7,056 bases of DNA from a virus. Lineage: Duplodnaviria > Heunggongvirae > Uroviricota > Caudoviricetes. Of this stretch, positions 1 to 7,056 are shown one piece after another. Positions within the stretch are counted from its first letter, which is position 1. Each line of letters opens with the position of its first letter. The stretch covers positions 1 to 7,056 of IMG/VR virus record IMGVR_UViG_2913167280_000008. The stretch is one strand, 5' to 3'. The translations under genes were made by a program, and so were the position numbers. Below the pieces are notes generated by a model, which saw only the letters and a list, made by a program, of their open reading frames with translations, ran no database searches and had not been told where the DNA came from.

Positions 1-1005
1 TTAATCCCCCGTGGACACAGCGTGGACACTTACGCCACCTTTCAGTGGATTAAGAGCCACCGCATCCTGCAGGTAATCCGGTGCAAAATGTGCATATGCC
101 ATTGTTTGCTGAATGGTTGCGTGACCAAGAATCTTCTGAAGCGCAATAATGTTTCCCCCATTCATCACAAAATGGCTGGCGAACGTATGCCGTAGCACAT
201 GTGCAGCCTGGCCTTTTGGCAAATCGGGTTTAACTCTTTTCAGCATCAGGCAGAATTCCCGGTACTTCACCTCAAACAAGTTGCCCGTTTCTTTGGTTTT
301 GATCGCCTCACAAACCGCCTGCGAAATTGGCACCGTCCTCTTCCGGCCATTTTTGGTTTCGAGAAACGTCACACGGTTATGAACTACCTGTTCTCCGCGA
401 AGCTTACTGGCTTCACCCCAACGCGCCCCGGTACTTAAACACAAAAGCGCAACACGCCAGTAGTCGCCCTCCAGTGTATCGAGCAATAGCGCTACTTCCT
501 TCTGGGACAGGAAAGCCATTTCTCGCGGGGATACATAAAGAATGGAGATCCCCCTTACCGGATGTTCTGCATCCCAAAGGCCTATTCTTTTCAGAACGGT
601 AAACATGCCGGATAGTCGGTTCATGTACCTGTTAGCAGATGACGGTTTCAATCCAGCAGCTATCTTTTGAGAACGCCACGCGATAATTTTCAGCTTATCA
701 AGATCCACAGCCTGCATATCAGCGCCAAGCTCATTGATTATGTTGCGCAGTTGTTTCCGGTCTTCTTCCGCCTTACGTCTGTGTTGGCCGTGATACATCC
801 ACCACAACTCAAGCAAATCATTCAGTGTCCGGCGATCACGGTAACCCTGTATATATTCCCGCTTTTCAGCGTTCGCCATGATGTAGCGTTCAGTGGCCAC
901 CGCTACTGATTTTTTGTCAAATACCTTACGCACGCGCTTTCCCTTGCGTCCGTTCGGCCTGATGTCCAGCAAATAACGACCATCTTCGAGCTTCTTAATT
1001 GACAT
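1..1005 (-). CDS. int: Tyrosine site-specific integrase, P2 Int-like (about 334 aa from the ATG at 1005..1003; the ORF track extends to a TTG at 1020)
   Basis: Minus-strand ORF ending in TAA at 3..1. N-terminus MSIKKLEDGRYLLDIRPNGRKGKRVRKVFDKKS closely resembles my recollection of the P2 Int N-terminus. C-terminal catalytic signature is present: TGARWGE (Arg), HVLRHTFASH (H-x-x-R box) and LGHATIQQTMAYAHF (catalytic Tyr region). GGAGG sits about 7 nt upstream of the ATG at 1005..1003. Confidence 0.9.
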   Translation of the reverse strand: MSIKKLEDGRYLLDIRPNGRKGKRVRKVFDKKSVAVATERYIMANAEKREYIQGYRDRRTLNDLLELWWMYHGQHRRKAEEDRKQLRNIINELGADMQAVDLDKLKIIAWRSQKIAAGLKPSSANRYMNRLSGMFTVLKRIGLWDAEHPVRGISILYVSPREMAFLSQKEVALLLDTLEGDYWRVALLCLSTGARWGEASKLRGEQVVHNRVTFLETKNGRKRTVPISQAVCEAIKTKETGNLFEVKYREFCLMLKRVKPDLPKGQAAHVLRHTFASHFVMNGGNIIALQKILGHATIQQTMAYAHFAPDYLQDAVALNPLKGGVSVHAVSTGD

Positions 1006-1101
1006 TGCGAAGCCCTCCAATGAACCGCTCTACAATTTCTCCAGCCTCTTTCCAGCAATAATCAGACCAGACAAAGAGCAGGTCTAACCAGTTTTCTGGC
1101 C

Positions 1102-1422
1102 TTAGCGGGGTGATTTTTGGTTTGTTTCGGTTGAAACCTGATCGCCCTCCGAATCGAAGAATCCATCAAGAGAGAGAGCCGGAGAAATTTGCCCAACCTC
1201 CGGCATCGTTTCATCTGTTGATAACCAATAAGCATACTTCTTAAATTTTGGGTGTTTCGTAACCTTAAGTAAGGCACCCTCTGTTACTTGCTTCCCCCTC
1301 ACCTCATAGTTAGTTACCGTCCCATAAGGTAGCCCAACACAATCCGCAAACTCCTGGCGGGTCATACCTTCTGCTTCACGAATCAGGCGAAATTTTTCAC
1401 CCATGCTTGACAAAGATGCCAT
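1102..1422 (-). CDS. C: Immunity repressor, P2 C-like HTH protein (about 106 aa; alternative in-frame starts at 1431, 1440 or 1500)
   Basis: Minus-strand ORF upstream of and co-oriented with int, as in P2. Contains an HTH segment (MTRQEFADCVGLPYGTVTNYEVRG) and a C-terminal GQISPALSLDGF stretch that matches my recollection of P2 C. GGAGGA lies about 10 nt upstream of the ATG at 1422..1420. Start choice is uncertain. Confidence 0.75.
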   Translation of the reverse strand: MASLSSMGEKFRLIREAEGMTRQEFADCVGLPYGTVTNYEVRGKQVTEGALLKVTKHPKFKKYAYWLSTDETMPEVGQISPALSLDGFFDSEGDQVSTETNQKSPR

Positions 1423-1536
1423 ATCGGGCATATCCTCCATCGCAAACATGCCACATCGGGCACACACATAAAAAAGCTCAAATAAGCCTATATAAGCCAT
1501 TTTGAGCCATTCGAACGAATTAGAGAGATTACCACA
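1423..1536. promoter_or_regulatory. Divergent early/repressor promoter and operator region between C (leftward) and cox (rightward), by analogy to P2 Pc/Pe
   Basis: A 114-bp AT-rich non-coding gap between two divergently transcribed regulators; contains the phased direct repeats listed separately and TATA-rich -10-like elements (ctatataag around 1488..1496). Exact hexamers and transcription starts cannot be assigned with confidence by eye. Confidence 0.55.
1483..1510. repeat. Three direct repeats TAAGCC(t)/TAAGCCAT/TGAGCCAT starting at 1483, 1493 and 1503 (10-bp phasing); candidate repressor or Cox operator sites
   Basis: Read directly: aaTAAGCCtaTATAAGCCATtTTGAGCCATtcg. One helical turn spacing places all three sites on the same DNA face. 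Confidence 0.5.
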
Positions 1537-1824
1537 ATGAGCGAATCAGAGCTTGAGGGGTTCATTCAGGTAGCACCATACCCACTTGAAGCGGTGCCAT
1601 ATCAACTATTCGCCAAGATGATTGGCCGCAAAGAATCAACCGTCAGAACCATGATTGACGCCGCAAAGCTACCAACAATTGATTTTGTAAAACCGGGTTC
1701 AGCAAAGACGCGAGCATCAGAAAACTGGGTATATCTGCCAGCATTTAACGCAGGTATGCGCAAAGCGTTTTTTGATCAGCCGAAAGAACGCCGCGATGCA
1801 TGGTTGTTGTGGCTGGGGCTTTAA
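1537..1824 (+). CDS. cox: Cox-like excisionase / early transcriptional regulator (95 aa)
   Basis: First rightward gene, divergent from C. The segments NWVYLPAFNAG and RDAWLLWLGL match my recollection of conserved P2 Cox segments (YWVYLPAWNNG, RDGWLMWLGL). AGAGAGA lies about 8 nt upstream of the ATG. Confidence 0.85.
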   Translation: MSESELEGFIQVAPYPLEAVPYQLFAKMIGRKESTVRTMIDAAKLPTIDFVKPGSAKTRASENWVYLPAFNAGMRKAFFDQPKERRDAWLLWLGL

Positions 1825-1830
1825 TCATAA

Positions 1831-2037
1831 ATGACCAGCAATATCACCAGCGCCATTTTGGCCATTATGTTTATTGAGATAGGCGTAATAGCGATTTATC
1901 TATTTCGCAAGTTAACGGGGCATGAAGAACGCTTTGTTGATCTCAACATCGAGTACATCGCCGCTTATACCAAAGGGCTTTTTCCGGCTGCCATTGGCGC
2001 GGTGCTCATAGCGTTTATTGTTCATTTTATCGGGTAA
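1831..2037 (+). CDS. Small membrane protein, two predicted TM helices (68 aa), function unknown
   Basis: ORF begins 6 nt after the cox stop. Two hydrophobic stretches (SAILAIMFIEIGVIAIYLF and LFPAAIGAVLIAFIVHFI) are separated by a charged loop. The RBS is weak, so expression may depend on coupling to cox. Confidence 0.6.
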   Translation: MTSNITSAILAIMFIEIGVIAIYLFRKLTGHEERFVDLNIEYIAAYTKGLFPAAIGAVLIAFIVHFIG

Positions 2038-2078
2038 AAAACTCAGTAATTCATAATGTTGTAGTAAGGAGATCGGTT

Positions 2079-2186
2079 ATGTGCGGACTGGATAAGATGG
2101 ACCTTTTCTTAATCATAATACTGTCAGTTAACTTCGGGGTGTTATTGGCTTCTATGATTTTCATGCGGGGATATAAACAAAAATGA
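2079..2186 (+). CDS. Tiny single-pass membrane peptide (35 aa, MCGLDKMDLFLIIILSVNFGVLLASMIFMRGYKQK); not in the supplied ORF track
   Basis: Hand-translated. A strong AAGGAG RBS lies 8 nt upstream of the ATG at 2079. A 20-residue hydrophobic core is followed by a basic tail. Its TGA (2184..2186) overlaps the ATG of the next gene (2183..2185) as ATGA. Confidence 0.4.
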   Translation: MCGLDKMDLFLIIILSVNFGVLLASMIFMRGYKQK

Positions 2187-2536
2187 ATAAGCAACAGTGC
2201 AATTCTTCACAGCAACGCTTCCGCAACGGGGCGGAACGCCATGCTAACCGTTTCGCTACCAGTGCATCACGTAGCAACACTCGCTACAGCCTGAGCGAAA
2301 CACACGCTACACCTGATGGCCATCCCGTAAAACAAATTGGTGAACACACCTGGCTGATTGAGAAAGCTGGAATCGTGGTTCACAGATGCCAACGCAACCC
2401 ATTTACCGGAAACCGCATTTTTGCTCTGAGCAACGGCGACAATCAGTTTGGACAGGATTTCACGTTGTACGAAGCTCTGCGCACGGTTGATCGTCTGCTG
2501 CGTGGACAGAATTTCATTAAACAGGCTGATTTATAA
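2183..2536 (+). CDS. Hypothetical early protein (117 aa)
   Basis: Long ORF in the same orientation as the early operon, start overlapping the upstream peptide stop (ATGA). No motif I can assign; polar N-terminus, conserved-looking core IVVHRCQRNPFTGNRIFALSNGDNQFG. Confidence 0.6.
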   Translation: MNKQQCNSSQQRFRNGAERHANRFATSASRSNTRYSLSETHATPDGHPVKQIGEHTWLIEKAGIVVHRCQRNPFTGNRIFALSNGDNQFGQDFTLYEALRTVDRLLRGQNFIKQADL

Positions 2537-2546
2537 CAGGTGCTTT

Positions 2547-2825
2547 ATGACCAAAGACCATGCTCAGGGTGTATTTATCCGCTTTATTGATTTTCGCGGT
2601 GAGCTGTTGTTGCGCGCATCAGCTATTGATGGAGTGGTTCCGGTAGATAAAAGCACGGCCACTTACATTTATCTGAACGGCACACGCCTGACCGTAGAGA
2701 TTCCATATCAACACGTATGCGAAATTATTAGCGAAGCTGAAAAAGCACGTCAGGTTAATGGCAATAACCCCTATCTCGAAATTATCTGCATGGATTCAGA
2801 AGCTGAAATTCAGAAGGCAGATTAA
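2547..2825 (+). CDS. Hypothetical early protein (92 aa from ATG 2547; the ORF-track start at 2448 lies inside the previous gene)
   Basis: ATG at 2547 is 11 nt after the TAA of the previous gene; the track's 2448 start would overlap the upstream gene by 89 nt. No recognisable motif. Confidence 0.55.
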   Translation: MTKDHAQGVFIRFIDFRGELLLRASAIDGVVPVDKSTATYIYLNGTRLTVEIPYQHVCEIISEAEKARQVNGNNPYLEIICMDSEAEIQKAD

Positions 2826-2836
2826 AGGGCGTTGCG

Positions 2837-3079
2837 ATGGATAAAGAATATAAAACTCTCGTCAATAAAGCACTTGAGCGCTTTCATTTTCGCTTAAGCG
2901 CATCGGGCACTCATGCTGAGCTCGCAGCCCGAGAATCATTGACCAGGGCCATCAAGAGTATATACGACACAGCTTTTTACATTGACGACCCGGACGCGCT
3001 CGACGAGCTTTCCGTACTCGTCTGCGCCGCAGAAAACGGGGACCATATTGAGCCATATAAACTGGGAAATATTGCATGA
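2837..3079 (+). CDS. Hypothetical early protein (80 aa), acidic
   Basis: ORF begins 12 nt after the previous stop in the same orientation. Its stop TGA (3077..3079) overlaps the ATG at 3076 of the next small ORF. Confidence 0.55.
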   Translation: MDKEYKTLVNKALERFHFRLSASGTHAELAARESLTRAIKSIYDTAFYIDDPDALDELSVLVCAAENGDHIEPYKLGNIA

Positions 3080-3189
3080 GTATATTTATCTCATGGCTTG
3101 TTCTGATTATTTCGGTGGCCTGCGCTATTGGGATTATGCGAATTATTAATTCAGTAAAAAAGATTGAACGCTTTTTCACTGAAGAATAA
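3076..3189 (+). CDS. Tiny single-pass membrane peptide (37 aa, MSIFISWLVLIISVACAIGIMRIINSVKKIERFFTEE); not in the supplied ORF track
   Basis: Hand-translated. The ATG overlaps the upstream stop as ATGA (3076..3079). A 19-residue hydrophobic core is followed by a KK-containing tail; stop is TAA at 3187..3189. Confidence 0.4.
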   Translation: MSIFISWLVLIISVACAIGIMRIINSVKKIERFFTEE

Positions 3190-3275
3190 CCGCGCAAATA
3201 AGACTCCAGGTTAAATAAGAAAATGTGAAAACAATCCGCATTCGCGGAGGTATTCGCACACGCCAAGGAGGCGTA

Positions 3276-3479
3276 ATGGCAATTAAGCATTTTCCTGTCG
3301 TTCGTTTCACCTCCAGAGGACGTGAATACGAAGTTGACGAACGCCTGATTACCACAATCGACAAACACCGTTCAGAAAAGGATGCACATCACATCTATCT
3401 CACTGACGGTACTTACTTCTGCGCCACCAACGTGGTGCAGGTGAATCTTATCAGACAGGTACAGGAGTCACGCAGATGA
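3276..3479 (+). CDS. Hypothetical early protein (67 aa from ATG 3276; the track gives a GTG at 3225)
   Basis: A strong AAGGAGG RBS (3265..3271) lies 4-5 nt upstream of the ATG at 3276, so I prefer this start over the GTG at 3225. Stop TGA at 3477..3479 overlaps the next start. Confidence 0.55.
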   Translation: MAIKHFPVVRFTSRGREYEVDERLITTIDKHRSEKDAHHIYLTDGTYFCATNVVQVNLIRQVQESRR

Positions 3480-3721
3480 CCATTCTGGACTACATCGCTG
3501 CCAATCCGGGTTGTAGCGGTGGAGAAATCGCCGCAGCACTGAATACACCAACCACAACCATTAATGCGGAGCTACGCCGTCTCTGGCGCAGCGGTTCAGT
3601 CATAAGAAAAGAGCGCAAAACAGGCGGTCGCTTTTCTTATCAGGTAAACCCGATGCCGTTTGGGTGTAGCAACCCACTAACCCAGATGTTCAACCAGCTA
3701 CTGAGGGAAATCAGAGCATGA
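3476..3721 (+). CDS. Putative winged-helix DNA-binding protein (81 aa)
   Basis: ATGA overlap with the upstream gene, and GGAG 8 nt upstream. The sequence ILDYIAANPGCSGGEIAAALNTPTTTINAELRRLWRSGSVIRKERKTGGRFSYQV has the helix-turn-helix-plus-wing layout typical of wHTH regulators; this is a pattern call, not a database hit. Confidence 0.6.
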   Translation: MTILDYIAANPGCSGGEIAAALNTPTTTINAELRRLWRSGSVIRKERKTGGRFSYQVNPMPFGCSNPLTQMFNQLLREIRA

Positions 3722-3729
3722 GCACCTCC

Positions 3730-3774
3730 TGCTGCCGGAAACCACGTCGGGCTTCAGCAGCTCATCCGGCAGCA
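3730..3774. repeat. Perfect 10-bp inverted repeat TGCTGCCGGA (3730..3739) / TCCGGCAGCA (3765..3774) with a 25-nt spacer
   Basis: Read directly from the sequence. It sits in the 141-bp gap between the wHTH gene and the 121-aa gene. No T-tract follows on either strand, so it is not a canonical intrinsic terminator. Confidence 0.5.
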
Positions 3775-3862
3775 AAACAAACTCCGTTAATTCCTGTTCC
3801 GGGCCTTTCCTGCACCTTGCGGCGGGAGGCCTTCGCACATCTGCAACAAGAGGATTGCCGCA

Positions 3863-4228
3863 ATGATTCTCGCCGAAGACTTTTTTGATTACCTGCTGAA
3901 AACCGAGCGCGATTTTGGTATTCGCGTTCTCGACCGCTATGCAATGTATCTGAAATCACTGCCGGAACAGCAGCTCCCGGACGGCCAGATTGTTATTGAC
4001 GGGCGCTACATGGTTGGTAGCTGCCAGGATGATTACACACTTTCCCGCATCGAAAGCGGCACGCCTTCCGTACTGGGTATTTACCAGCGAACTTCATTTC
4101 TGATTGCTGATGTAATTGCTGACAGCATTCGCATAACACACCGTTATGCCAGCACAGAGAGCACCATGCAGGAAATCCAGCGGCTGGCTACCGTCTGCCA
4201 CAATGCACTGAGCGGCAAGGCGGAGTAG
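3863..4228 (+). CDS. Hypothetical early protein (121 aa) immediately upstream of the replication initiator
   Basis: ATG at 3863 is preceded by AAGAGGA about 8 nt upstream. Stop TAG at 4226..4228 is 5 nt before the GTG start of the gpA-like gene. No recognisable motif. Confidence 0.6.
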   Translation: MILAEDFFDYLLKTERDFGIRVLDRYAMYLKSLPEQQLPDGQIVIDGRYMVGSCQDDYTLSRIESGTPSVLGIYQRTSFLIADVIADSIRITHRYASTESTMQEIQRLATVCHNALSGKAE

Positions 4229-4233
4229 TCAGC

Positions 4234-7056
4234 GTGGCAACGGAGTACATCAGAAACTGGCAACAACCACGCCATGCAGTCGGTCGCGAGGGAACGGGGG
4301 AGCCTGTCCGCCCCTCCCTTCTTTCTTCCTGGCTGGATGCCTACCGGGCAGAGAACGAGCGCCGCCAGGAAATGGCTGATGCGGCGTTCTCCGCCACGCC
4401 GCTGGGCAATTTGATTAATAAAAACCTGGACGCACAGGAAAAACAGGACAAAGCCATCACACTGGCAAGAGAAGCCAGAAAACAGGCGTGTGGCGCGGTG
4501 GATGAAGCAATTGCCGCACTGCGCCTGCTGCCGTCCTATCTGCGAGATCCGCTTATCCGCCATCTCTCTTTCCTGCGCAAAAAACAGGAATCCGATCGTC
4601 AGAAAGGCAAAAAGAGCTGGCAGGCTGAACGCTACGCGCGCGGAACCCTGCGCAAAATATTCGAACGTCTGGAGCGCACCGACCGTCGCTGGCTGACACC
4701 GGGTTATCGCTCCCTTGCCGGGCGTGAACGCCTGGATGATTTACTTTACCTGCCGCAGCTCAACAAACACCAGATACAGACGCTGGCCGTCATGACAGCG
4801 GCGATGTTCAGCAGCACCTTCGAAAAACTCTGCGATGACTTTGGCGCGACCGATGGCGAGCTGACCATGGATATAACGCTGAAGGCGTATCAGCTGCTGG
4901 CCCGCATGGCGTTACATCTGCACACAGTGCCGCCGCATTATGACGCACTGACAACAGACAAAGACCGTAAGAGCGAACCGGACACGGAACTGCTGCCGGG
5001 CGCAATCCTCCGCCTGACCTGCGCGGACTGGTGGAAACGCAAACTGTGGCTTTTACGTTGCGAGTGGAGAGAGGAGCAACTCCGCGCTGCCTGTCTGGTT
5101 TCCAGAAAAACATCCCCCTATCTGAGCCAGGACGCATTAAGTGAATTTCGCGCACAGCGCGAGAAAACACGCGATTTCCTGAAAAGTTTCATGCTGGAAA
5201 ATGAAGACGGGTTCACGATTGATCTCGAGACGGTGTATTACGCGGGAGTAAGTAACCCGGTCCACCGTAAGGCAGAAATGATGGCCACCATGAAGGGGCT
5301 GGAACTTCTGGCCGAAGCCCGTGGCGACAGGGCGGTATTTCTGACCGTTACCTGTCCGTCAAAATATCACGCAACAACGGAGAACGGTCATCCGAATCCA
5401 AAATGGAACGGCGCCACCATGCGCGATTCCAGTGATTACCTGGTTAACACTTTTTTTAAGGCGGTCCGCAAAAAACTGAATCGCGACGGCCTGCGCTGGT
5501 ATGGCATCCGCACGGTGGAGCCACACCATGACGGCACCGTACACTGGCACATGATGGTCTTTGCACATTCTGAAGAAATCGACAGCATCGTGGACATCAC
5601 CCGTGATATTGCCATTCGCGAAGACCGCCACGAGCTGGGCAATGACATAACTCCGCGCTTTAAGGCAGAGTACGTTGACGGTTCGAAAGGTACGCCGACC
5701 AGCTACATCGCCACCTACATCGGAAAGAACCTGGACAGCCGCGCCGTGGATGGCATTGACCCGAAAACAGGCAAGCCACGCGTTGATCACGAAACCGGAA
5801 AATCAATGGCCGAGAGCGTGGAACGCGCCATCGGCTGGGCGCGCCTTCACCGCGTCCGCCAGTTCCAGTTCTTTGGTATCCCCTCCCGTCAGGTATGGCG
5901 TGAACTCCGCCGCCTTGCCAGTCAGATGGCCCGCAACCCGGAAGGTCCACAACGTCTGGAAAATGACGCAATGGATGCGGTACTCGCTGCCGCTGATGCC
6001 GGGTGTTTTGCCACCTACATTGAGAAACAGGGTGGCGTACTTGTTCCACGCAAGGATTACCTGATTCGCACCGCCTACGACCTCGCAGAAGAGCTGAACG
6101 ATTACGGCGAGCAAAGCGTACAGATTTACGGGATCTGGTCGCCACAAATCGGGGAATCTTCCCGCGTGTGCACGCACCCGGATAACTGGAAGCTGGTAAG
6201 ACGTAAACCGGAAGCGGAAGACAGCGCCAACGAAAATGGTTTTGACCTTCAGGGCGGCCCTGCCGCCCCTTGGACTCGTGGCAATAACTGTCCCCGTGTA
6301 CAGGAAACGGACAACAACGGGACAGAACAGCCGGAAGAACGGCCAGCACCGTGGCCGCAGCTTCCTGACGGCGTTGAAGTGAATGAATGGATGCGCTCAC
6401 TGAAACGGCACGAACGCCGGGCGCTGATGCGTTCGCTGCGTGACAAACAGGCAAAAAACAGCAGTGATGAAATGCAGAACTGGACACAGAGCCGCAAACA
6501 GCCGCGGCCTTTGCCTGATAACCACGAGTTACTCGCTAAAGAATGGCGGGAGTCTGCCGAATCTCTCGGCCTGCATATCGGTAAACAACAGATGCTGCAC
6601 CTGTTACGGGGCGGCAGTCTGTACGTTGACGGCAGCATCATTGCGCCGCAGGGATATGAAATTGTACGTAAACCGGATACCCGACCGGACAGCCGAATCA
6701 CGCAGCTCTGGCAGCGCCTGAGCCGTAATCACAGCGTAAGCAGCACGGAGATCCGCCATAACCCGGTTTCCAGCTATCTGAAACAGCTCGGTGCATCAGA
6801 CCCAGAAGCCGCCGCACGCCTGGCATCCACACTTCAGCAGGACCAGAACACCATGAAAACCCCCGTTACCGTGCTTTCTGACATGCTGCGCGCCATCCGT
6901 GACGCAGAGCACGCACAGAGAATCAGTGAAACCACTGAACGCGCCCACCGCAAAGCAGACCTGCTGCGGGGTGGCCTGACCCGTGGGAACAAAAAACAGA
7001 CAGAAACGGGATTCACAAATCCCGTAAATGAGCAAAAAACGCGCCGCGAAATATGA
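4234..7056 (+). CDS. A: Rolling-circle replication initiation endonuclease, P2 gpA family (HUH superfamily), 940 aa, complete with stop at 7054..7056
   Basis: GTG start with GGAG 8 nt upstream. HUH metal-binding motif in VEPHHDGTVHWHMMVF (H-W-H at nt 5542..5550, residues about 437-439). Tyrosine pair Y-x-x-x-Y in SYIATYIGKN (Tyr codons 5704..5706 and 5716..5718). Both motifs match my recollection of the P2 gpA active-site region. Position at the end of the early operon matches P2 gene order. Confidence 0.85.
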   Translation: MATEYIRNWQQPRHAVGREGTGEPVRPSLLSSWLDAYRAENERRQEMADAAFSATPLGNLINKNLDAQEKQDKAITLAREARKQACGAVDEAIAALRLLPSYLRDPLIRHLSFLRKKQESDRQKGKKSWQAERYARGTLRKIFERLERTDRRWLTPGYRSLAGRERLDDLLYLPQLNKHQIQTLAVMTAAMFSSTFEKLCDDFGATDGELTMDITLKAYQLLARMALHLHTVPPHYDALTTDKDRKSEPDTELLPGAILRLTCADWWKRKLWLLRCEWREEQLRAACLVSRKTSPYLSQDALSEFRAQREKTRDFLKSFMLENEDGFTIDLETVYYAGVSNPVHRKAEMMATMKGLELLAEARGDRAVFLTVTCPSKYHATTENGHPNPKWNGATMRDSSDYLVNTFFKAVRKKLNRDGLRWYGIRTVEPHHDGTVHWHMMVFAHSEEIDSIVDITRDIAIREDRHELGNDITPRFKAEYVDGSKGTPTSYIATYIGKNLDSRAVDGIDPKTGKPRVDHETGKSMAESVERAIGWARLHRVRQFQFFGIPSRQVWRELRRLASQMARNPEGPQRLENDAMDAVLAAADAGCFATYIEKQGGVLVPRKDYLIRTAYDLAEELNDYGEQSVQIYGIWSPQIGESSRVCTHPDNWKLVRRKPEAEDSANENGFDLQGGPAAPWTRGNNCPRVQETDNNGTEQPEERPAPWPQLPDGVEVNEWMRSLKRHERRALMRSLRDKQAKNSSDEMQNWTQSRKQPRPLPDNHELLAKEWRESAESLGLHIGKQQMLHLLRGGSLYVDGSIIAPQGYEIVRKPDTRPDSRITQLWQRLSRNHSVSSTEIRHNPVSSYLKQLGASDPEAAARLASTLQQDQNTMKTPVTVLSDMLRAIRDAEHAQRISETTERAHRKADLLRGGLTRGNKKQTETGFTNPVNEQKTRREI

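Follow-up and report, generated by a model that had tools for sequence, protein, structure and literature searches.

The long C-terminal region of a P2-like phage initiator is probably a patchwork that includes its own replication origin

The stretch of DNA analysed here (the window) comprises 7,056 nucleotides, positions 1 to 7,056 of the IMG/VR virus record IMGVR_UViG_2913167280_000008 (Caudoviricetes), and its last gene encodes a gpA-family rolling-circle initiator. An earlier reading of the same letters, the original prediction, had singled out the part of this protein beyond roughly residue 650 as a long low-complexity region resembling a disordered or added domain. Based on alignments, structure prediction and the comparison of related phage loci, we consider it probable (about 70%) that the flagged stretch is a patchwork, in which the phage's own replication origin is read as protein and is followed by a C-terminal domain of the gpA family and then by a lineage-specific tail.

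A putative replication origin is translated within the initiator gene

The peptide GGPAAPWTRGNNC, quoted in the original prediction as an example of the unusual sequence and correctly placed there (it begins at residue 666), is the in-frame translation of 39 bases that make up a GC-rich hairpin and a core homologous to the nick sites of phages P2 and 186. Its G/P/A-rich look arises because the GC hairpin in the DNA is translated. The elements of the gene that bear on the origin are the following:

4234-7056, plus strand: gpA-family rolling-circle initiator open reading frame (ORF), GTG start, 940 amino acids (aa) plus stop; last gene of the window
5542-5550, plus strand: HUH motif H437-W-H439
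5704-5718, plus strand: catalytic tyrosines Y491 and Y495
6252-6268, plus strand: putative origin hairpin GGGCGGC-cct-GCCGCCC with a 7-bp GC stem, read in frame as G-G-P-A-A-P
6264-6294, plus strand: invariant block of about 30 nt around the nick core
6270-6290, plus strand: putative origin nick core TTGGACTCGTGGCAATAACTG (21 nt), a homologue of the nick sites in P2 and 186; in-frame translation (P)WTRGNNC

A hairpin followed by a core is the layout typical of origins used by HUH enzymes, and for P2 and 186 the location of the origin inside gene A is textbook knowledge. In the P2 RefSeq record, gene A carries at position 29892 a 'nick site at ori', which falls within GCGCCTCGGAGTCCTGTCAATAACTG on the third base of the homologous TCGGAGTCCTGTCAATAACTG, and the 186 record marks the nick site at the same motif, also inside gene A, by similarity. 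Position transfer from the P2 annotation would put the nick of the window gene at or next to G6272. The window core matches the P2 core at 16 of 21 bases, and the hairpin folds as DNA with -10.9 kcal/mol (z = -2.4). The HUH motif and both tyrosines, H437, H439, Y491 and Y495, are invariant in alignments of 7, 21 and 67 sequences, which bears out the position given for them originally (about residues 437-495). Y491 and Y495 align with Y450 and Y454 of P2; two active-site tyrosines of P2 gpA, the position of the P2 ori inside gene A and its near-identity in a Vibrio relative are all on record (PMC3986222).

In a fuzzy search, each of the first nine sequences, the window among them, gave one homologous core and no more. 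In 12 of 12 lineages the core lies within gene A and keeps its reading frame; these lineages include Escherichia, Vibrio, Haemophilus, Mannheimia, Pseudoalteromonas, Burkholderia and Acidovorax. Klebsiella-type genes share the block of about 30 nt identically, synonymous positions included, at 43% protein identity and with 26-78% nucleotide identity in the flanking DNA (60-nt windows). Furthermore, 23 of 25 distinct contexts have a perfect GC-rich stem, at least 5 bp long, whose end lies 0-5 nt upstream of the core; at control positions of these loci the frequency of such a stem is only 5%. The stems use 15 different 5' arms, for instance GGGCGAC/GTCGCCC, GGACGGC/GCCGTCC, GTCGGC/GCCGAC and GCGCAC/GTGCGC. 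The identity of the block at synonymous sites, the frame shared by 12 lineages and the covarying hairpin together place the constraint at the level of DNA. An Rfam search and full-text literature searches for the nick sequence gave no match.

Two further origin contexts out of the 25 (L075 and L089) have a single stem mismatch each, GGACGC..GCGCCC and GAGCGC..GCGCCC, respectively, and could represent either sequencing errors or naturally occurring variants whose origins are weakened.

We propose that the initiator protein would cut at the 6252-6290 origin with Y491/Y495 and so start rolling-circle replication. Selection would then act on the origin DNA, and the peptide GGPAAPWTRGNNC would be a by-product located in a disordered acidic linker. 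For annotation, a peptide of this G/P/A-rich, 'disordered-looking' kind, located about 60-250 residues upstream of the gpA C-terminus, marks the replication origin in P2-like phages.

Composition and anatomy of the C-terminal region

The single ORF 4234-7056 confirms the length of 940 aa, and the boundary of the unusual region, originally put at 6180, was approximately right, residue 650 actually beginning at 6181. The description of this region as low-complexity did not hold. Shannon entropy is 4.06 bits for residues 650-940 versus 4.14 for residues 1-649, and the minimum in 12-residue windows of the C-terminal region is 2.36 bits, against a SEG-type criterion of about 2.2 bits or less; the catalytic part has equally low windows. 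The enrichment in R, Q, E and P is real but modest (32.3% vs 25.0%, Fisher p = 0.02). Of the two properties named, polar and charged, the first agrees with a decrease of hydrophobic residues (22.0% vs 29.3%, p = 0.02), while the second does not stand, since the content of charged residues is flat (29.6% vs 29.0%). The shift is focused in residues 660-715, with 41% R, Q, E and P, 12% hydrophobic residues, 14% proline and a net charge of -9.

To describe the segments of the region, a full-length AlphaFold model built on 67 sequences was read together with the alignments, with confidence given as predicted local distance difference test (pLDDT):

6211-6378, plus strand: acidic P/E/Q-rich linker containing the origin (residues 660-715), its part after the origin being residues 687-715; predicted disordered, pLDDT 26-44 over residues 661-706
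6379-6729, plus strand: canonical gpA C-terminal region (residues 716-832), seen in alignments, tblastn and post-origin BLASTP
residues 727-736: basic helix ERRALMRSLR, shared form ERRxLxRxLR
6511-6678, plus strand: predicted small helix-helix-three-strand domain (residues about 760-815) with the motif LLRGGSLYVDG, shared form LLRGGxLxxDG; pLDDT 75-83 for residues 760-810
6730-6828, plus strand: helical segment (residues 833-865) common to some relatives only, pLDDT 52-67
6829-7053, plus strand: lineage-restricted tail (residues 866-940), a long predicted helix at 877-920 and then a basic end predicted disordered, pLDDT 35-61

About 40% of residues 650-940 have a pLDDT below 50. On this shallow alignment, disorder-type signals are found at residues 661-706 (pLDDT around 30, 12% hydrophobic residues) and 912-940, and residues 760-815 are at about 80. 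A single-sequence AlphaFold model of residues 650-940 was too poor for use (pLDDT 49).

The segment following the linker belongs to the family. In tblastn, single alignments to PSP3, Klebsiella and Yersinia phages extend through residue 796-800, the one to PSP3 reaching residue 800, and BLASTP with the post-origin part only recovered Yersinia (E = 4e-6), Klebsiella (1e-3) and PSP3 (1e-3) proteins, P2 being marginal (E = 4.3). The original prediction would have been refuted by a C-terminal region conserved across canonical gpA proteins of similar length. Half of this holds: residues 650 to about 832 can be aligned to the C-termini of canonical gpA proteins, all of which are, however, shorter than the window protein. 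We suggest that residues 716-832, with the basic helix and the small folded helix/beta domain and under purifying selection, would form an accessory adaptor, DNA- or partner-binding and separable from the nickase. This role is proposed because the small domain is folded and conserved and can be exchanged irrespective of nickase-origin specificity.

Beyond residue 832, relatives become few. The segment 833-865 is found in proteins of Hafnia (P0080) and Shigella (P0048) and in a distant 841-aa gpA (P0129, which ends ...DIRYDPVGNYADMLKKADPEAW...). An exhaustive HMMER search with residues 821-940 against 1.84 billion representatives gave ten matches only, namely gpA members of the clade, their fragments and relatives, plus two large repeat proteins (P0124 and P0127), which upon inspection were spurious repeat matches. 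Searches of Pfam, NCBIfam and PDB sequences returned nothing for the C-terminal region, a word-indexed search with the post-origin module returned fragments only, and Foldseek with the full-length model against PDB gave no match below E = 0.001, with weak matches of adeno-associated virus Rep to the HUH core only. By these searches, only residues from about 833 to 940 appear lineage-restricted, with no relatives found outside the clade. The suggestion of an embedded domain likewise found no support, as matches were confined to the clade and none came from Pfam, NCBIfam or PDB.

Taken as a whole, the region does not amount to a single domain, whether added or disordered, because the origin is translated within it, residues 716-832 are homologous to other gpA C-termini, only residues from about 833 to 940 are lineage-specific, and evidence for a recruitment module was not found. 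Residues 833-940 would instead be a clade-specific tail, helical and then disordered, under weaker constraint.

Length differences across the gpA family lie mostly after the origin

The length of about 760 aa originally given for P2 gpA proved accurate (761 aa, NC_001895). Lengths of gpA proteins in the compared phages were:

597 aa: Burkholderia phage
652 aa: Acidovorax phage
694 aa: 186
708 aa: PSP3
761 aa: P2 (NP_046795; NC_001895 28034-30319)
775 aa: HP1
786 aa: Mannheimia phage
800 aa: K139
804 aa: Klebsiella phage
828 aa: ACA1
925 aa: Yersinia phage vB_YenM_42.18
940-946 aa: window protein and close relatives

The best 120 matches of the gpA family profile range from 706 to 898 aa. Of the 179 residues in excess of P2 gpA, about 38 precede the HUH motif, about 22 lie between this motif and the origin, and 119 follow the origin, so the window protein is indeed longer than P2 gpA with a mostly C-terminal excess, even though this excess does not form one added or disordered domain. 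Post-origin lengths in the 12 lineages are 34, 45, 73, 77, 82, 123, 123, 123, 135, 151, 156 and 254 aa; the shortest, of just 34-45 residues, belong to the Burkholderia and Acidovorax relatives, and the 254-aa part of the window protein is the longest by about 100 residues. The differences in gpA length (597-946 aa here) thus mostly reflect the post-origin module, and sequence past the origin is better treated as an exchangeable module than as a part of the nickase.

The origin is a junction of mosaic genomes

Comparison of close relatives revealed reciprocal switches of sequence at the origin. Through the origin peptide, P0068 (CP-933T type, with 830 aa) and P0048 (with 879 aa) show 92-97% identity to the window protein, but straight after it only 18-44% in aligned segments; for the CP-933T-type pair P0068/L090, identity is 92-94% before the origin and 18-30% after it. 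Conversely, identity in P0101 and P0100, which have a Klebsiella-type core, is 42-61% ahead of the origin and 94-100% for residues 688-865 beyond it; the first of these is the hybrid L089/P0101. In both reciprocal cases the switch at the DNA level falls inside the shared 30-nt block, and the hairpin stays with the left part.

The genes around the initiator follow the same division. The hybrid L089 combines a 186/Klebsiella-type left arm (CI, CII-like, Fil, Dam) with a window-type right arm (ParM, StbB-like), and the CP-933T type has different downstream genes. Clustering of 300-nt flanks from 91 sequences showed one left type with six right types, and right types common to different left types. 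By sequence comparison, the origin is a recombination junction among P2-like phages: the invariant core would serve as the crossover point, and everything downstream of the nick, the C-terminus of the initiator together with the adjacent cargo, would be swapped as a block. Further junctions occur in the C-terminal coding region, for example at about position 6707 (L035 is about 91% identical only from 6707 on).

The exchange could proceed by homologous recombination across the 30 identical bases or by initiator-mediated strand transfer at the nick, and the data agree with both. In a stronger form, which we regard as speculative and rather unlikely, nick-and-join chemistry of the initiator at the origin, rather than homologous recombination, would swap all sequence downstream of the nick between co-resident P2-like phages. 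The C-terminus and the ParM/ParR cargo would then move as one cassette, and such joins would have left the long tail as their footprint; the tail could even couple the initiator to plasmid-like maintenance, given that one complete phage of the lineage has been recorded as a circular 'plasmid' of 34.5 kb. In the literature searched, the scope of which leaves out key older P2 papers, the covarying hairpin, the origin crossover and the cassette-derived end are undescribed. These three features are useful refinements, and for phage evolution and P2-type replicon design a mosaic boundary centred on the origin and a hairpin that covaries hold modest interest; the protein itself has already been annotated thousands of times, and the flagged feature opens no long-standing question.

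The extreme 3' end of gene A and the parM/parR cassette

Close relatives of the window encode a plasmid-type ParM (StbA_N and ParM_N domains) and a Plasmid_stab_B (ParR-like) protein directly after gene A. The elements of this end, in the window and in the relatives, are:

6943-7053, plus strand: last ~37 codons of the initiator gene, co-varying with the downstream cargo
6990-7031, plus strand: 42-nt repeat unit within the last 22 codons, containing at 7006-7025 the palindrome ACGGGATT-caca-AATCCCGT with 8-bp arms
L009 5900-7172, L001 8230-9505 and L089 6884-8162: ParM/ParR-like genes of relatives

Two relatives (L029 and L031) are 95-96% identical to the window only up to 6940-6944 and then diverge; they have an AAA ATPase gene downstream and no parM/parR. 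Since the sequence switches at about 6944 together with the downstream gene, the last ~37 codons appear, from these comparisons, to belong evolutionarily to the neighbouring cargo cassette.

The 42-nt repeat is present in all 24 fetched loci with the window-type tail end, and 13 of the 24 have two copies. The second copy, 73 bp further on, is placed in the spacer that separates the stop codon of A from the start of parM (in L009 the copies are at 5757-5798 and 5830-5871). A repeat match such as that at window 7005-7028 has an expectation of 0 by chance, and both copies score as weak minus-strand terminator-like hairpins with a T-run. These repeats could be candidate ParR-binding sites or weak minus-strand terminators.

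This raises an alternative in which the protein tail is incidental and its coding sequence is kept for functions at the DNA level, either as centromere/operator repeats for ParR or as minus-strand terminators that protect gene A against antisense transcription. Such a view agrees with the location of one copy in the last 22 codons and of another in the A-parM spacer, with the conservation of the repeat beyond chance, with its travelling together with parM/parR and its absence when the cargo is the AAA ATPase gene, with the hairpin and T-run of both copies, and with the weak codon-level constraint in residues 866-940. However, there are only two repeat copies, whereas well-studied type II centromeres (plasmid R1 parC) have many iterons; no sigma-70-like promoter adjoins the repeats, as neither such a promoter nor a plus-strand terminator was detected in 6100-7056; and plasmid parM homologues match from the parM start codon on and do not share the upstream repeats. 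Moreover, a DNA-level function would cover only about 6990-7031 and leave residues 833-900 unexplained. We consider this account of the tail doubtful.

A complete phage of the lineage (L097, NZ_CP148288.1, 34,461 bp, circular) has been deposited as an E. coli 'plasmid'. It encodes an integrase, cox, a 946-aa initiator, parM/parR and P2-type head, tail and lysis genes. The circular record hints at extrachromosomal maintenance or, alternatively, at an assembled replicative form.

Selection on the C-terminal region and the weighing of alternative explanations

Pairwise ratios of non-synonymous to synonymous substitution rates (dN/dS) against close relatives are 0.09-0.14 for the core. For residues 688-832, they are 0.15-0.28 in four of five close relatives and 0.51 in the remaining one (L014). 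Among 21 alleles, variable sites at codon positions 1/2/3 number 18/14/39 for residues 688-832, 4/3/11 for residues 833-865 and 11/8/15 for residues 866-940. This pattern indicates that the frame is translated and constrained, although the last 75 residues are only weakly so. The extreme end would be largely tolerated read-through into mosaic DNA, not a dedicated host-factor module, and the tail may be non-essential.

Several observations weigh against the patchwork reading. The putative nick position is carried over from the P2 annotation, and the P2 and 186 annotations lie one base apart relative to the core. The alignment of 67 sequences behind the structural model is shallow, so low pLDDT is no proof of disorder (the conserved residues 592-652 are low as well), and PDB sequence and fold searches gave no solved structure for the C-terminal region. 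Because the window ends at the A stop codon, the linkage to parM/parR is read only from relatives with 86-97% identity. In addition, the tail ORF is intact and gapless in 22 loci (21 alleles), and its dN/dS is below 1 (0.23-0.71, with small substitution counts), so that some function of the tail is possible.

The last of these points is shared by a second alternative, that the C-terminal 290 residues are a lineage-acquired module needed for replication, recruiting a host helicase or polymerase factor or acting in oligomerisation. Such a module would suit the dependence of P2-type initiators on host replication proteins, the thousands of database members with an intact ORF (clusters of 16,881, 3,025 and 707 sequences), a dN/dS below 1 throughout, and the prediction of helices and a small folded domain. 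On the other hand, residues 716-832 are not added but common to shorter gpA proteins, and for residues 833-940 neither a relative elsewhere among the 1.84 billion representatives nor a match in Pfam, NCBIfam or PDB came to light. Where the nickase core of relatives is 92-96% identical, their C-termini can be shorter and unrelated (proteins of 830 and 879 aa), the Burkholderia and Acidovorax proteins have 34-45 post-origin residues only, and residues 866-940 are weakly constrained. An acquired module essential for replication is improbable in our assessment. As to the more specific proposal of host-factor recruitment made in the original prediction, we found nothing in its favour: domain and structure databases gave no match, and the extreme tail is weakly constrained and replaced in close relatives. 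A host-factor module is possible, though unsupported, for residues 716-865 and unlikely for residues 866-940.

The third alternative, a length artefact in which gene A was joined to a downstream ORF through a frameshift, the loss of a stop codon or a mis-assembly, could draw on the co-variation of the last ~37 codons with the downstream cassette and on database fragments that start at an internal Met874 (P0121), but it is very improbable, the artefact being ruled out by the recurrence of the 940-946 aa ORF in isolated phages (PhiR44_2, 520873), IMG/VR contigs and thousands of E. coli genomes, next to 22 gapless full-length DNA matches and third-position variation in residues 688-865 that marks a selected frame.

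Comparison with known initiators

The window protein shares with P2 gpA the Pfam family, the HUH and two-tyrosine motifs, an origin inside the coding sequence in the same frame and a homologous hairpin and core, and the early-operon context of int, repressor, cox and A is alike. It differs in being only about 31% identical to P2 gpA, in five positions of the core, in the stem sequence and in its 254 post-origin residues, compared with 135 in P2. The A proteins of 186 and PSP3 have the basic ERRxL helix, and PSP3 alone of the two has the LxxGG..DG small domain; their post-origin parts are 77 and 123 aa, respectively, with no counterpart of residues 833-940. The phages PhiR44_2 and 520873 and the E. 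coli clusters (940-946 aa) have the full-length architecture, tail included, at 87-97% identity, with parM/parR downstream, but in many of them the N-terminal 90 residues are a different module (17-20% identity). The CP-933T-type protein (830 aa, P0067/P0068) shows 92-96% identity as far as the nickase core and the origin extend; straight after the origin core it continues into an unrelated, shorter C-terminus, and its downstream genes are different.

The gene A protein of phiX174 is likewise a HUH/two-tyrosine initiator with an origin within its own gene, and it acts preferentially in cis; it belongs to a different family, from a small single-stranded DNA phage, and has an internal in-frame product, A*. 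No evidence of such an internal product was found for the window gene. A product starting at Met874, like A*, was considered and not adopted, database fragments being its sole support.

Gene context, prevalence and further modules of the initiator

The window corresponds to the early region of a prophage of the P2-like (Peduoviridae) type. An integrase, a helix-turn-helix repressor and Cox are encoded upstream of the initiator, in a gene layout as in PhiR44_2, and the small early ORFs upstream include DUF4761, DUF4754 and DUF5405-like proteins. The other features are:

1-1020, minus strand: integrase
1102-1500, minus strand: helix-turn-helix repressor
1537-1824: Cox

Pfam PF05840 (Phage_GPA) covers residues 179-503 of the initiator (E 7.6e-128, 426.5 bits vs a cut-off of 31.4). 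In addition, phrog_91, 'nicking at origin of replication', matches residues 3-940 (E = 2e-272), and the match of phrog_6857 spans residues 252-940. The nearest phage relatives are the Escherichia phages 520873 (94.9%) and PhiR44_2 (87%, annotated with 946 aa). E. coli 'replication endonuclease' clusters at 90% identity, with 16,881, 3,025 and 707 sequences, match over the full length at 87-94%, and one 940-aa E. coli 'replication endonuclease' is 97% identical to the window protein. The initiator is thus very common in E. coli prophages, the window carrying one common allele with no rarity, and the protein is an ordinary, extended member of the known gpA family, which leaves low to moderate interest for the flagged feature.

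Two other parts of the protein deserve mention. Residues 592-652 (6007-6189) are strongly conserved family-wide, with invariant Q599, G600, G601, Y624, G633 and W652, and are modelled with beta strands at a pLDDT below 50; this low value is attributed to the shallow alignment rather than to disorder. Residues 1-90 (4234-4503) are a separate mosaic module, with 17-20% identity in P0020, P0022 and P0027, which are otherwise 88-97% identical, and with 86-87% identity to the window protein in P0013 and P0009.

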